Both the position numbers and the translations under genes were made by a program. From Phyllosticta citribraziliensis (lineage: Eukaryota), in the NCBI RefSeq assembly GCF_038025025.1, contig NW_027117350.1, positions 434,001-498,000 on the forward strand: DNA of 64,000 nt, in the 5' to 3' direction. The notes beneath the pieces are model-generated. The model ran no database searches. It was not told where the DNA came from and was given only the letters and a program-made list of their open reading frames with translations. Positions 4,807 to 31,529 of the stretch are shown here, piece after piece (position 1 is the first letter of the stretch; every line of letters starts with the position of its first letter).

Positions 4807-7663
4807 ATGGATCCTAACAGCTCATCCTCGTCCTCTGGCAGCGGCTATGTCTCGCCTTCTGGTCGCCAGACCCCCAACCGCCACTCGGAATCCTACCTTG
4901 CGAACCAAGGCGCTCGCCGCCCGAGCTACATGACAGTTGGCACTGGCAACGTCTCCGAGAGCGCCAGAAACCTCACGGCCATGCTGAACGATGACTCTGG
5001 TTACGGGGGGAGCATCGCCGACTCGGGAAGCGCCTCGTCTGGGTGGCATCCGGGCCTCACCGAAGACCGCCCTACGCCTGCACATACGCCTGTTTTGCCT
5101 GGAGAGAACAACGCTGCATCGGAGCACGAGCGCCGCACTATTGCTAGCCATATCCACCAACTATACTACAACCAAAACCGGACAGCGCTGGGACGAAGCA
5201 TCGGCAGGACCGTCGAGACTTTGAAGAAGCTGCAGGAGATGAACAAGGACTGGCCCGCCCACTATCCGCAAGTCCAGCGTTCGGCCTCACCCGCTCGCGC
5301 TGCCAGCCCGCACGATCCCCGACCCGGCCTCCATTACACTCAGTCCACATTGGACAGTCATCGCGGCGAATCGCCAACGAGGCCTGCGCCCTTGAGACGA
5401 GCAGAGACGTCTTTGGGGGAGAGCAGTTCAGCGGCTGAATCAAGCTCCACTGCGACGCAAAGGCCGGTTGCCGAGCCACGTCTGGTTACTCCCCAGTTGG
5501 CGCAAGATTTCTCGGTCCTCAAGATCGATCTGAAGATGGGCGCATTGTCGCAGACAGAACTCGTTCATTCTCTAGAAAAGGGCGCCGTTGCGCAGCTTCT
5601 AGATGGCCAGATCACCAAGTCCATCAGGCATTTGTATACTCTTCGCGACCGCATCGACGATACCTCCAGCAAAGTACTGGTTACCGGAGATCTCAACGCC
5701 GGAAAGTCCACATTTTGCAATGCCCTGCTGAGGAGAAAGATTCTACCCGAAGATCAGCAGCCCTGCACTAGCATCTTTTGCGAAGTCCTGGACGTCAGGG
5801 AGAATGGCGGCGTAGAAGAAGTGCATGCTATTCCAATTGGATCCGTCTACAACCGCGACAACGAAGCAAGCTACGACGTTTACACGATTCCCCAACTCGA
5901 GGACATTGTCACCGAGAATGAACGCTACTCTTCCTGCAAAATCTACGTCAAGGACATTCGTGCCGTCGACGAATCACTTCTCAACAACGGCGTGGTGGAC
6001 ATCGCGCTCATCGATGCACCCGGTTTGAACGCCGACTCGCTCAAGACGACTGCGGTTTTTGCACGCCAGGAAGAAATCGACGTCGTAGTCTTTGTTGTTT
6101 CCGCCGCCAATCACTTTACCCTCTCGGCCAAGGAGTTCATTTTCAATGCCGCCCGGGAAAAGGCCTACATGTTCATGGTGGTCAATGGTTACGACAACAT
6201 TCGAGACAAGAACCGCTGTCAGGACGGGATTCTTAAACAGGTTGCCAAGATGAGCCCTGCAACCCACAAGGAAGCCAAGGAGTTGGTTCATTTCGTGTCA
6301 AGCCAAGCTATTCCGGTAGCACCACTGAAAATTCCCGAAGGTGGTGGCGGCTCTGGCTCCGGCTCAGGCTCTGGACCTGGTGGTGATCCTCATGACGACG
6401 ACGACGACTCGTCAGGGACGCCACAGGGCAAGGGCAAGGGCAAGGAGCGCGAAAAGATTAGAGACTTTGAGGAGTTGGAAAGTTCTCTCCGTCGATTTGT
6501 TCTGGAGAAACGGGCAAGATCGAAGCTGGCTCCGGCAAAGACATACCTTCTCAACGTGTTGTCGGACCTCTCTAATCTAGCCTCGATCAACAAGAATGTC
6601 GCTCAATCAGAACTCGATCGCGTAACCAGGGAACTGTCAGAGTTGGAGCCAGCATTTGAACAGTCCAAGAAGTCGCGCACAGAGGCCAGCCAGGACGCCG
6701 AACATACGATTGAGGAGACTGCGGCCGAAGTCTACGACTACACGCGAGAAACGGTTGCTACCACGATTTCTCGGGTCGCAGAGCACGACCTGGGACTTGA
6801 ATACCCTGGCCTCCTGAGTGCGTTCCAATATGCCGAAGACATCAAAGCCGCCATGCTGCAGGAGATTTCCGAAAGCGTGTACGTCTGCGAGGACTATGCC
6901 CGTGAACAGACCACAATTGGATTCCGCAGAATCTCAAGTCTCGGTATACTGCACCTTGGTGACGATTGGAGCCATCTGACGTTCCACCCCGAGAAGATGT
7001 TCCGCAAGAGGAAGGACGCTCTGTCTCGGTCTGTGGAATTTGACGTGGAGGTGTGGGACTTTTTCGACGTCGCCAACCTTTGGGAGCGCCAGGAGAAGGT
7101 TGCCGGTACCAGCATGGCCGTCACGGTCGCCGGTGTTGTTGGCACGCGGTTGGTCGGTGGCGTCAGCTGGGTTGACGGAACATTGGGTGCCATGAGACTG
7201 CTAGGATCCAACGGCCTGCGGAGGATGTTTATACCTGGTCTCATGCTGGCTGGTAAGTTCCCAAGGCTCGATATGTCAGCACTTTACTAACTTCGCATCA
7301 GTTGGCCTCGGCATCACCTACGCCCTTCAATCAATCCCCAAGTCTCTTCCCCGCCGTCTCTCAACCAAACTCTCAGCCCAACTCGACGCCCTCGACTACA
7401 CGCACGCCAACGCCGCACGCATCGCCAACGAGGTGCGCAAGGCCCTCAAGCACCCCGCCGACGAACTGCGCGTGGGCCTGCAGCGCTCGGTCGAGAAGCT
7501 GCAGGGCCAGAAGGAGAGCACCATCAAGAGCAAGCACGAGTCCGAGGTCGCGCGCAAGTACTTTGGCAACTTGGTCCGGGACGCGGGCGACATCAAGGCG
7601 GGCGTCGAGAGAGTCGACCTCGAGGGCCCCGCGCCGGGCGTCGCCGGCGTGTATCAACCGTAG
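4807..7663 (+). CDS. FZO1: Mitofusin, outer-membrane fusion GTPase
   Basis: Dynamin-like G motifs GDLNAGKST, DAPGLN and VVNGYD; C-terminal TM segments; intron 7253-7301. Confidence 0.95.
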
Positions 7664-7853
7664 AATCACGACAGTTTGGATTCCCGGTGGCGATGATGGT
7701 GGCTAATAGTCTTCTGGTCGGCAGACAGACTGACCAGGGAAGTACTGCATCTGGACGGTCGTTTGGGGAAAAGTTTGCGGCGGTCTCTCTGTTTTCCTCC
7801 CTTTTCATGCTGTCGCGCGTTTTGCTTTTTCTTTTGCGCTTTCGTCCGGCATT

Positions 7854-7884
7854 CCCCCCTCCCCCCCCCCCCCCCCCCCCCCCC
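7854..7884. repeat. Poly-C tract (poly-G on the minus strand)
   Basis: Run of more than 20 C downstream of FZO1. Confidence 0.9.
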
Positions 7885-8884
7885 TTTCCGCCTGCCCGCA
7901 TGAACATGCGCGCAGGCTGCTCTTCCCTCAATCTCGTCCTCTACCTCTCTCTCATATCTTTCTCTCTCGAACCACCTTTCCCTCGTCCTCCCATTCCATG
8001 TAGGTACACCGCTCCCCGTCTCCGTACATACCAACCACCAACCAAAGCATACCCCCATCCAGCACCATCACTACCATCACAAATACCACAGGCGCACCCG
8101 CTCGAATCACTGTACGCTGTCCTCCTCCCCCAGTCGCTCTGCCTTCTGTTCTTTGCTGCTTCTCTCTCTTTCTCTTTTGCATCGATACCATTCCCCCACC
8201 CCCACAACTGCCTGCCCTCTCCCCGCATTGAACACGACAATCCATGTTTGTATGTTATGTAGAATGACGCCAATTCAATCAATCACAAGACTTTGAAAGC
8301 GCTTTTTGAGGAAGTGTGTGCGTGCGTGCGTGCGTTCTGCTTTCGTGTATTCACGGTTACTGATCTAGTTGGTCTGTAGGCTGCCTCGCTGCTGCCTGGA
8401 CATTTGTCTGCGGAGTGAGCGGCTGGTCAGCGAGGTTTGATACACGGTACAAAGGTACATGGGCGAGCTGGTGGGCGACCCATTTCTTCTTCTGTAAAAG
8501 GTATTCTACCCAAGTCTTTGGTTTGTTTTTTGGGCGTGACATGGATGTGTTCTAGACTAAGATGATGCCGAGCGTTGCTCACAACACGTCTCACCACCGC
8601 CGCTGTCTGCCTCTCAGTCTGCAAGGGGTGGTGCATCATCACCATCCATCTACTAGCCTTTCCATCAGCCAGCGCCTCTGGACAAAGAATGGACGTATGT
8701 AGGGTACAAGTCCAGTCCAGCCCAGCAAAGCACCACTGGCAGTCCAGCTCACTCACTCACTCACTCACTCAGCCCACACAACAGCACACACAACACCCAC
8801 CGAGCCCAATCCCCATGGCCGCTCCCCAACTGACCCACGCAAACACAAGCACCACTCGCAGTCGCAGCCGTCTCATCCCTGCAA

Positions 8885-9245
8885 TACATCCTCGCGCATG
8901 CGGGATCCCATGGGCAGCCCGCCCGTCTCCCGCGCGCCCCGCGAGGGCGCATGGCAGCGTGAGGCGGGTTTCCCGCGGTCGAAAGCTGGGATAGCGACGA
9001 TGTTTACAGCGGCTGTCCCGGTCGAAACGCGCGTCACTCCTGCTCGCTCCCGCGGTCGGTCGGTCGGCATCGGCCTTGGATTTGTTTTGGCCCGTCCAAC
9101 GGATGGACGCATGCCGGCGCGTCGACTCGGTCGGTCGGTCGGTTTGCGACGGCGACCGAGCGAGGAGAGATTCTCGCTTGCTGGAGCGCCCGTTCAGCGC
9201 GGTGCTGAGCCTAGTTTGCTATCGACTGATTTATGGATGGGCCCT
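8885..9245 (+). ncRNA. Candidate structured RNA, family unidentified
   Basis: Many nested helices and two GNRA-type loops; see findings. Confidence 0.45.
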
Positions 9246-9443
9246 GTTTGGCTTGTTTTCTTGGCGACGAGTTCCAAACGGAGGACCAAACGACGGGGTG
9301 GGAATGGTGCATATGCGATGATGGGTCTTGATTTTCTCTCTTGCTGATTACCTTAATGCCGTGCCGTCTGGCATCATGATTGGTTTTTTGGATTGAACGG
9401 GGTGGTTGGTTTTCCCCCCCGCTGCCACCCCCTGTCTGCATCG

Positions 9444-10157
9444 TCACTCGGCTGCTTCCACGTCGTCGCCAAAGGACAGGGTGACCTTGGCTTTGGCCCT
9501 CTTTGTTTTCTTGGGCTTGGGTTGCTTGGAGGCGGACGAGGCGTGCTTGGGGTCGGGCTTGTTTGCGGCGCCAACGCCAGCAAGCGACGACGACGAGGGT
9601 GCTTTGGATGCTTCGTCCTCGTTTTGTTCGTCGTCGTCGTCGTCGTCGTCATGGCCAATCTTCACGGCTTTGCGCTTTTTCGAGGCGGCGCCGACAGAGG
9701 CAACTTGCTGAGGCTTCTTCTTGGCGCTCGCGTTTGTGAGCTGCTGGCCGTCTTCCTGCTTTGGGCCACTGCCGTCTGCAGAGGCGGCGGCGGCGGTGGC
9801 GTCTGTTGCACCGGTAGCAGCGCCAGCGCCGGGGTTGCCCAGGGCTTCGTATTCTGCCTTGGAGAGAGCATCACCGCTCTCCTCGAGCACGTAAGTCGGC
9901 GCGTCGTCGTCGTCGTTGGCGGACTGTCGGGCCTGGCCTCGAGGACGGATAGCAGGGCGTTCGTGCCGGTCTGTGTCTCTCCCGGCCGTCGCCTCGCCCT
10001 TGAGGCGTCGCAGAAAGGCGGGCTCGCTGCGGTCTGTGAGGCACGTGGACGTGGGCAATGGGTTAGTCGCATGAAGTTGAATGCTGGCAGGTCCAGGGGT
10101 GGTATAGCTGAGCTGTGCGCACGTACCGTAGCTCAGGTTCTTTGCATTGAAGGCCAT
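9444..10157 (-). CDS. DUF4604-like acidic/lysine-rich protein
   Basis: MAFNAKNLSY|DRSEPAFLRRL, DDAPTYV and a C-terminal K-rich stretch followed by LSFGDD. In-frame intron around 10034-10126. Confidence 0.8.
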   Translation of the reverse strand: MAFNAKNLSYGTCAQLSYTTPGPASIQLHATNPLPTSTCLTDRSEPAFLRRLKGEATAGRDTDRHERPAIRPRGQARQSANDDDDAPTYVLEESGDALSKAEYEALGNPGAGAATGATDATAAAASADGSGPKQEDGQQLTNASAKKKPQQVASVGAASKKRKAVKIGHDDDDDDDEQNEDEASKAPSSSSLAGVGAANKPDPKHASSASKQPKPKKTKRAKAKVTLSFGDDVEAAE

Positions 10158-18781: not shown

Positions 18782-20079
18782 ATGCCCGACGTGAGTAGCG
18801 CGCACCGGAGCTCCCATTGAGCAGTACCACCCCGATATGGGTGCTAACGCCAGGCGTCAGGTTAAACGTACAATCAAGATCATCACCAAGCAGACGACCA
18901 CGTAAGTCCCACGCGCCCGTCGTGCTGGCCGCGCTCGCATGCCCGACGCCGGAAGCTGTCCGTGCCCATCTTCCTCCCTCCGCGCCGGATCACAGAGCAG
19001 CTCGCAGCAGCCAGCGGGGAAGAGGGCTTGGCGCAACCCCAAGCACTCGACGGGAACAAACATTATGCGTCTCCTTGGATGCGTACAACATGTGGCCGAG
19101 GGCAGGGCTTTGGCTAACAGCTGTGGTTGTCGCTTTGTAGGGACAAGCCGCAGGTCATGGAAGGCTTCCCGATGCGCGAGTGGAATATCGAAATATGGCT
19201 GCTCAACGACGCGGGCGAGGAGGTTCCGGCCACTTGCTTCGAGAAGGCCGTCTACCGCCTGCACCCTTCGTTTGACAAGCGCGCCGTTCAGAGTACGTTG
19301 ACACCACCGCACAAGCACGGCAGAGGAGGGCGGATAGCAGTCAGCCGGCGCAGAAGCCCGGATGGGTCTGACAGGCTACCCTTCTGCCACTGTTATTGGA
19401 AACATGAAGCTAACCGCTCGTGTACAGCGAAAAAGCAGCCGCCGTTCCGCATCGAGGAGGAGGGCTGGGGCGAGTTCGAGATGCAAATCACGCTGACGGC
19501 CGTCGGCAAGGGCGGCGACCACACGGTCGAGCACGACCTCAACTTTGGCTCCGAGCGCTACGAGTCCAAGCACAACATTGTCTTCAAGAGCCCCAAGCCA
19601 GAGCTTCTGGCCGCGCTGCGCGAGTCGGGCCCCGTGGGCGAGGAGAATGGCGCTAGGAGTCGCAGCTCCTTGCCGAGCGGCAAGAAGAGGAAGGACAAGA
19701 CTGTGAGTTTTCCCTCGTTGCGCTCCCAGGCGGGTTGCGCGCGTTGTATTGTGGGCATGCAGAATTGGATATATTCGCTGACCAGGGCGCGTACGCCAAC
19801 AAGGTCGACATGGAGAAGCTGGCAGACGGCCTGCAGAAGCTTGGAGAGGACGACCTGCTCCAGGTCGTCCAGATGGTGCACGACAACAAGACGAATGATA
19901 CGTACACCAAGAACGATGTTGAGGGTAAGCTTGCCACTCTTCCCCGGTTGTCGCGATTGGTGCCCATGTAGCTGACCTGCGGCTTTACAGCTGGCGAATT
20001 CCACGTCGATCTCTACACCCTCCCGGATCAGCTCGTCAAGATGCTCTGGGACTTCACGGCGGCGCGCGTTGATATGTAA
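18782..20079 (+). CDS. TAF14: YEATS/ET domain protein Taf14
   Basis: MPD|VKRTIKI, GFPMREW, YRLHPSF, PPFRIEEEGWGEF and VDMEKLADGLQKL...GEFHVDLYTLP. Introns 18791-18860, 18902-19140, 19293-19427, 19703-19803 and 19925-19990. Confidence 0.95.
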
Positions 20080-30745: not shown

Positions 30746-31529
30746 CTACTGGCCCATGTACACAGCAATGAGCAGCCCACCCGTGTACGGCGCCGTCGTG
30801 CACCTGAAGCCAATCCCGGAATCGTTCAAATACGCCAACAGGTCTCGGTATTCCTCTGCGCTCACCACGACATTGTCGACGACGACCATGGCGCCCGTCT
30901 TCAAACGCGGCTGCACCAGCTTCAGAGCTGGCAGCGCGAGCGGCGACCAAACTACACGTACGCAAGTCAGTCGTCTTGCCTCCACTCTCCACCTCGATAT
31001 CTCGCGGTGACTTACTATCCAACAGCACAAAGTCGACCTGTTCGGGCAAATCGCTCTTGAGCGTCTCGCGCAAATCGCCCTCGCGCAGCTCAATCCACCT
31101 CTCAACCTCCTCCCGGCCGGCACTCTTCCAGTTCTCCGTCGCGCGCAGCGCCTTGGTCGGCTCATTCTCCGTCGCAATCACCTTCCCCAGCGCGGCCTCC
31201 CCCTGGGCTCCGGCCGCAACCGCCGCCTGCACATTCTGGCCCACGGCCAGCGCCAGCCAGATGGTGCTGACGCCGAACGAGGTGCCGGCCTCGACGACGC
31301 GGCGCGCGGCGCTGGCGCGCAGCAGCAGGTACACCAGCGCGCACTTTTCGGGGTCCAGCGCGACGTAGCGCGTCAGGGCGACGCTGACGGGTTGGCCGTC
31401 GCCCGAGTTGTAGGGCGGTTCGGCGAGGGCGGCGCTGTGGAGGGTGCGGAGGGTGGAGAGGGTGTGAGATGGGGCGTTGAGCGAGGAGAGGGCCGTTTCG
31501 ATGGTTGGCTGAGGGGTTGTGGTGGCCAT
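30746..31529 (-). CDS. SAM-dependent O-methyltransferase (MdmC/CCoAOMT-like)
   Basis: VVEAGTSFGVSTIWLA, GDLRETL, DFVLLD|IW and VVVDN. One intron around 30954-31015. Confidence 0.9.

Follow-up and report, generated by a model that had tools for sequence, protein, structure and literature searches.

Does the G+C-rich stretch that separates the genes for the mitofusin Fzo1 and a DUF4604 protein in Phyllosticta citribraziliensis encode a structured RNA? The element occupies positions 8885-9245 of the window, by which the whole analysed DNA of 64,000 nt is meant, and a first-pass annotation had described it as an unexplained structured non-coding RNA between convergent genes. It lies in the gap between Fzo1 on its left and the DUF4604 gene on its right, and the neighbours are indeed convergent, with Fzo1 on the plus strand and DUF4604 on the minus strand. 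The element is single-copy, as its only match in the genome is itself, and the same applies to its 68-nt core. The gene features of the locus are as follows.

4807..7663, plus strand: Fzo1 mitofusin gene, intron 7252-7300; dynamin domain (Pfam), RNA contigs
8601..8890, plus strand: C/A-rich leader, possible 5' part of a plus-strand transcript, proposed from base skew only
9444..10157, minus strand: gene for the DUF4604 protein; its 90-nt intron (10126-10037) is in frame and left in place in both RNA contigs

Residues 560-818 of Fzo1 share 100% identity with a Phyllosticta-named protein and 94% with a protein of another Phyllosticta species. The DUF4604 intron has a GT donor and an AG acceptor as well as a branch-like motif, and its position is common to two metagenome loci (L044 and L066), both with an in-frame stop inside the intron. 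L035, and apparently also L018, are without it.

With a 149-codon frame as query, one related protein (P0129) was recovered among 147 candidates, and a second search added P0130 and its cluster mate P0131; all three derive by machine translation from a close relative's homologous DNA. Placed on the window, P0129 undergoes 10 frame changes over 8611-9298, crossing all three frames; therefore no protein is conserved and the stretch is non-coding. The frame changes, together with the lack of any Pfam match, agree with the non-coding status assigned earlier. None of the five ORFs of the element was present in the protein collection, no Atlas match was obtained, and the minus-strand ORF search returned no relatives among 312 candidates. 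Since 8892-8986 is read by P0129 and P0130 in different frames, the bases of the relative could be deduced there: 84 positions are fixed as identical, 10 are forced changes and 2 stay open, on the assumption that both strains share this DNA, and the solution is self-consistent. Beyond 8990 only one frame is available, which hides silent changes and leaves two positions ambiguous. Base-level comparison within the element refers to this relative alone, while organisms E and G contribute blocks or percent differences.

The contig comparison covered 4 of 17 runs, including X1 (organism A, identical in sequence to the window) and X7 (organism E). Both contig sets skip the Fzo1 intron and thus represent RNA. 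A single contig of organism A extends over 8274-10136, across the element; in organism E, a contig matching 8800-9389 has a depth of 65 and is flanked by depths of 210 (Fzo1 to about 8750) and 18 (DUF4604), these depths being contig means only, and the contigs carry no strand, ends or level. Transcription of the element, as proposed, is thereby seen in RNA contigs of two organisms (A and E). Organisms B, C, D and F and plant metagenomes had small word shares, which were left out; the organism B piece matches the window exactly, with a depth of 2. The DUF4604 intron is left unspliced by the contigs of both X1 and X7, which antisense RNA and intron retention explain equally well. A 51-nt GT..AG stretch on the plus strand (8959-9009) has both ends kept in the relative and about 14 changes inside; it was rejected as an intron, being unspliced in both RNA contigs and giving no conserved frame upon removal. 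On the Fzo1 side, a run of about 30 C is present in the 3' region (7854-7884), where the RNA contigs break. The contig over 7926-8269 reaches a depth of 396, compared with 41 over the Fzo1 body (organism A); an Fzo1 3' end near 8270-8290, with 3' bias, is probably behind this depth.

The known RNA families declared absent by the first-pass annotation were absent: Rfam gave no match in the 64 kb at gathering score, two chance matches in the window at E <= 10 (both outside the element), and none on four syntenic loci. RNase MRP RNA (RF00030) and SRP RNA (RF01502) had no match in the window, the genome's own genes being located on C2 (97.7 bits) and C7 (133.6 bits), respectively. Nuclear RNase P is marked by the motifs CR-I and CR-V, which form the P4 pseudoknot; the element has no CR-V on either strand and no Rfam match to this RNA at E <= 10, and one loose CR-I-like match on the minus strand at 8974 is altered in the relative. 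A shallow search of the genome for its own nuclear RNase P gene found none by RF00009 (15 of 1791 candidates scored) or by the CR-I pattern (7 of 54 sites scanned). No TTAGGG template 8-mer of a telomerase RNA occurs in 8700-9440 or in the whole window, and a genome search with RF02462 found no gene, which is a weak negative. The C box, Sm site, A box, B box and similar motifs were scanned by their consensus sequences: neither strand has a C box or Sm site, the plus strand has no H box in 8885-9245, and D-like motifs are 4-mers only. As for a type 2 Pol III promoter, the plus strand has neither an A box nor an exact B box; a B-like 9-mer fits at 8/9 positions, and the nearest T6 lies at 9384. 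No core motif or Rfam model of self-cleaving ribozymes or the TPP riboswitch matched in the element, a bacterial promoter and terminator scan stayed at chance level, and patterns derived from the element retrieved nothing from prokaryote genomes or viral contigs, as expected. The fungal HDV-like ribozyme variants, as far as described in the consulted part of PMC5640933, are likewise G+C-rich multi-stem RNAs in fungal non-coding DNA, but the element has no Rfam match at E <= 10 and no nested P1-P4 pseudoknot by hand, and its crossing pairs are not conserved. The RNAs described in the consulted parts of PMC1636426 and PMC2871058 gave no match to the element.

In organism E, 590 contiguous bases align and 58 of them differ (9.8%), compared with roughly 4% for coding DNA and a range of 2.4-7.9% among the three other intergenic pieces that could be aligned (three further pieces were unalignable). 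The region is therefore long and alignable, not unusually conserved. Two short blocks are kept in organism G, a more distant organism.

8903..8940, no strand assigned: block kept in organism G, equal to the 5' arm of hairpin 1 (described below), on the contig with DUF4604
9012..9041, no strand assigned: second block kept in organism G, with a B-box-like 9-mer (8/9) and overlapping ACGCG/CGCGT boxes

The B box and the ACGCG/CGCGT boxes are consensus motifs. The limits of these blocks were derived from contig joints and depth bins, and the arithmetic was reproduced. The 43-kb contig of organism G that carries DUF4604 holds only these two collinear gap blocks among the matches listed, and its Fzo1 match is on another contig. 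Thus the 5' arm of hairpin 1 is present there, with no piece for the 3' arm among the matches listed; pairing between the two kept blocks was weaker than in shuffles (422 of 500 as good). In 80 more distant metagenome Fzo1 loci no homologue was found, blastn giving only E >= 0.4 and nhmmer nothing, and a one-sequence covariance model of 8904-9024 recovered only itself among 86 sources; with filters off, the same model gave chance matches (E >= 1.9) in 4 loci. Fzo1 is followed by a gene for a Tul1-type RING ligase (PF11145) in 14 of the 80 distant loci, and four loci have the order Did4, Fzo1, Tul1, DUF4604, Kre2. In the present genome, an intact Tul1/Dsc1 lies on the opposite strand at a distance of about 80 kb (G000:C13:360319-362803), and the junction corresponds to window positions 7664-9443. 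Because Tul1 has moved and the distant loci have no homologue, the junction where the element lies is a rearranged one, and the element is either young or evolving fast. The element was also considered as a Tul1 remnant and rejected, as there is no tblastn match in it and Tul1 is intact elsewhere. The present 5' neighbour of Tul1 we take to be a Ste2-like pheromone receptor gene from the way it reads; the guesses that two inversions moved Tul1 and that there is a link to the promoter of that gene were set aside for want of sequence similarity. Upstream of Fzo1 in the metagenome contig L044, short tandem-like repeats and a long perfect-looking hairpin were observed (174-797 and 1319-1438).

The explanation that we favour, tentatively and at somewhat less than an even chance, is that the element consists of local hairpins in a young plus-strand non-coding transcript facing DUF4604, acting in cis on RNA stability or 3' end formation. 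The element would be the structured body of a polyadenylated non-coding transcript that crosses the Fzo1-DUF4604 gap, either as a separate RNA starting near 8700-8800 or as a long 3' extension of Fzo1, and it would fold as a row of local hairpins, not as one compact fold. Hairpin 1 (8906-8980) may be under weak selection for pairing within the genus. Conceivably, the hairpin binds a protein or slows decay, which would set the amount of RNA running antisense into the DUF4604 3' end; this regulatory step is conjecture. The unspliced DUF4604 intron fits such an antisense RNA, which would leave the intron in place. Antisense and read-through non-coding RNAs at convergent gene pairs usually have no conserved structure; the element shares with them the RNA cover across the gap and the unspliced RNA over the opposite intron.

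The favoured explanation has to be weighed first against chance folding of transcribed DNA with 66% G+C under little or no constraint, in which tidy changes reflect luck, post hoc choice of helices or template switching; we consider this unlikely, though with a real share of probability. All eight arm pairs listed by the first-pass annotation lie where it placed them and are fully complementary, three of them with one or two G.U pairs. The arms of its GNRA hairpin (GCGCCCC/GGGCGC) are present, but a clean GNRA closure is not, as folding prefers a 5-nt loop and the closure needs a bulged C, the arms being of 7 and 6 nt. The whole stretch hardly folds beyond chance, with z -1.50 on the plus strand (6 of 100 shuffles as good) and -0.96 for the 361 nt on the minus strand (17 of 100). 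Perfect stems of at least 5, 6 and 7 bp were at least as numerous in 30, 17 and 20 of 100 shuffles, respectively, and the count exceeded all 100 shuffles only for stems of at least 8 bp with at most two G.U pairs (29 vs 18). The number of pairings is as expected from 66% G+C, in line with the caveat that high G+C content inflates chance pairing. Sliding 120-nt windows over the region reached a best z of -2.2 on the plus strand and -3.3 on the minus strand. When 120-nt windows without overlap (358 in all, covering positions 20-42860) were scanned coarsely with 14 shuffles each, with more noise than in the sliding scan, 14 windows had z <= -2.5, none of them inside the element, and 7 reached -3. 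The coarse-scan windows at 19820, 25100, 29420, 34100, 36380 and 38780 had z from -3.4 to -5.2, stronger than the element; some of them are coding. By folding energy alone, the region does not stand out. Hairpins taken singly, with ends chosen by hand, gave z -2.5 (8904-8982), -3.1 (8983-9024), -3.1 (9126-9178) and -1.2 (9056-9125). The structural features considered in the comparison with the relative are as follows.

8906..8980, plus strand: hairpin 1, about 75 nt; basal stem 8906-8923/8963-8980, upper stems, loop 8940-8944; inverted repeat I14
8915..8968, no strand assigned: unchanged block of 54 nt, the same in the relative as deduced from two reading frames
8983..9223, plus strand: proposed long-range pairs, 8983-8997 with 9210-9223; present, not conserved, outside the supported structure
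8985..9022, plus strand: hairpin 2, 11-bp stem; z -3.9 on the plus strand, -1.5 on the minus strand
9065..9116, plus strand: three-way domain, 9065-70/9111-16 enclosing hairpins 9072-92 and 9093-9109; z only -1.2
9126..9164, plus strand: hairpin on CGGT repeats; both changes in it improve pairing
9194..9208, plus strand: 5-bp hairpin; the sole forced change sits in the loop

The best-supported helix is the basal stem of hairpin 1, in a register different from that first proposed. It has 14 of 18 pairs in the window and 17 of 18 in the relative, where hairpin 1 has 30 pairs and its z goes from -2.3 to -4.9. Six forced changes fall on five pairs of this stem, and all of them keep or create pairing: 8914/8972 goes from G-C to U.G, a change on both sides, at 8917/8969 a G-C replaces G.U, and at three mismatched places pairing is gained. 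The two-sided change is the only one in hairpin 1 and in the element. As the gains in the stem are all in the relative, the window's copy of hairpin 1 is the weaker one. When the same positions received random letters, 8 of 2000 controls were as good on the plus strand; when the ten changes were placed at random, 100 of 2000 were. Hairpin 2 has two mismatches turned into pairs in the relative, one pair lost and two ambiguous positions, and the three-way domain loses no pair. Controls for 9060-9180 matched the plus strand in 13 of 400 (letters) and 10 of 400 (positions); those for 9060-9125 alone and for 9181-9245 were not significant. Helices proposed at 8922, 8934, 9065 and 9194 carry no forced change, and that at 9093 changes only to G.U. 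Other proposals fared worse. The possible pseudoknot or switch is unsupported: in the relative, 3 of 8 pairs of the GATAGCGA arm are gone (its partner having no forced change), as is one of the 8 in the second long-range pair. A deletion of 13 nt interrupts the enclosing CTCGCTC helix, and the C-GAAA-G loop takes three forced changes and is not kept. One fold of about 360 nt is unsupported, whole-region folding being unremarkable. The structured non-coding RNA first proposed therefore stands as non-coding, transcribed, outside known families and with several local helices, not as a single fold or pseudoknot.

Chance would account for the 9.8% divergence in organism E and for the first whole-region test, which was negative, its conservation index being matched by 97 of 150 controls on the plus strand and 84 of 150 on the minus strand (this test was based on reading one frame, with four places corrected afterwards). 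The 54-nt unchanged run has a chance probability of 0.001 in the 95 nt tested, and of 0.07-0.18 over 600 nt at 10-12% divergence; 7 of the 10 forced changes cluster in 8969-8984. According to the consulted part of one study (bioRxiv 10.1101/2021.04.15.439925), template switching can perfect stem pairing without selection. It copies Watson-Crick complements, yet the relative's basal stem contains one new U.G, one old U.G and one C-U mismatch. The survival of two collinear blocks in organism G and the letter control of hairpin 1 also speak against chance. Because several tests were run and limits were chosen after looking, support for kept pairing is moderate; judged from the one relative, pairing has probably been kept in some local hairpins, most clearly in hairpin 1.

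The same hairpins may instead act on the minus strand, in a long DUF4604 3' UTR, which we regard as quite unlikely. The blocks travel with DUF4604 in organism G, and the organism A contig spans both. On the minus strand, hairpin 1 folds as well (z -2.8) and its position control is matched by 53 of 2000; with the span limited to 80-120 nt, the relative's energy was matched by 2-16 of 150 controls on the plus strand and 0-4 on the minus strand, and the pairs lost by 16-94 of 150 (unremarkable) and 5-24 of 150, so this test favours the minus strand as much or more. The pairs broken in the whole-region test also lean to the minus strand (7 of 150). Against this, the wobble pairs of hairpin 1 (G.U and U.G) turn into mismatches there, its letter control is matched by 346 of 2000, hairpin 2 is weak, and the 9060-9180 controls rise to 45 of 400 (letters) and 25 of 400 (positions). 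Moreover, 9241-9443 is T-rich on the plus strand, like the Fzo1 3' UTR on its sense strand. The wobble pattern and base skew thus hint at the plus strand, while the limited-span test does not.

A control region at the DNA level (a promoter or factor-binding cluster), possibly left by gene rearrangement and with incidental hairpins, is an improbable candidate. Among 361-nt windows, the element ranks in the top 0.5% for CpG count and the top 0.3% for CGCG count; ACGCG/CGCGT boxes lie in the second conserved block, short blocks and not both arms survive in organism G, and the site is a rearrangement junction. However, the strongest other CGCG peak, near 31000, falls in coding DNA, and the 14-mer around the ACGCG/CGCGT box is no commoner genome-wide than its control (22 vs 35). 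The RNA depth in organism E (65 vs 18 over DUF4604, contig means only) and the wobble-tolerant changes point to RNA rather than a DNA element. An independent gene of about 650 nt for a structured RNA outside known families, with a row of hairpins, born at the Tul1 junction, fixed in the genus and regulating DUF4604 as antisense RNA or via a small RNA from hairpin 1, is similarly improbable in our judgement. That hairpin 1 is a Dicer substrate (a microRNA-like precursor) with the small RNA in its 5' arm is improbable as well: the 75-nt length, the 30 pairs in the relative, the unchanged core and the one arm kept in organism G would suit it, and fungal hairpin small-RNA loci are mostly lineage-specific according to the consulted part of PMC9757828, but the stem has about 72% G+C, is bulged and has a frayed base in this genome, and only 666 of 1727 reported loci were confirmed in the same source.

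As far as the consulted part of PMC9757828 describes them, fungal mi/milRNA loci are, like this element, lineage-specific non-coding hairpins kept in related species, while the present stem is very G+C-rich and bulged, and the class is defined by small-RNA reads that show a stranded, precise product of one arm. A hairpin kept in a related genome, one of the features by which milRNAs are recognised, was found in one inferred relative. In the part of PMC8216456 available to us, Gao, Jones and Rivas (2021) described fungal UTR and intergenic structures over hundreds of genomes, with 4-18 significantly covarying pairs. The element resembles those structures in being single-copy, non-coding, hairpin-based, beside ordinary genes and without an Rfam family, but only a few close relatives are known to have it, and it shows a single two-sided change. 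By the standard of covariation, it offers one inferred relative and that one change, with controls from 8 of 2000 to not significant. As to the 85-nt RING-finger 3' UTR motif described there, no match was found beside Tul1 in the loci examined. No description of the element was found in the literature searched; the supplement of PMC8216456, outside this check, may bear on it.

For this locus, a young non-coding RNA with hairpins, of a generally known kind, is plausible. No long-standing question is answered by it, and genus-level hairpins in fungal gaps are familiar. If the favoured explanation is true, the locus would offer a datable birth of a structured non-coding RNA at a gene-order breakpoint, and because the genus has several sequenced species, the birth and decay of its helix could be traced species by species.
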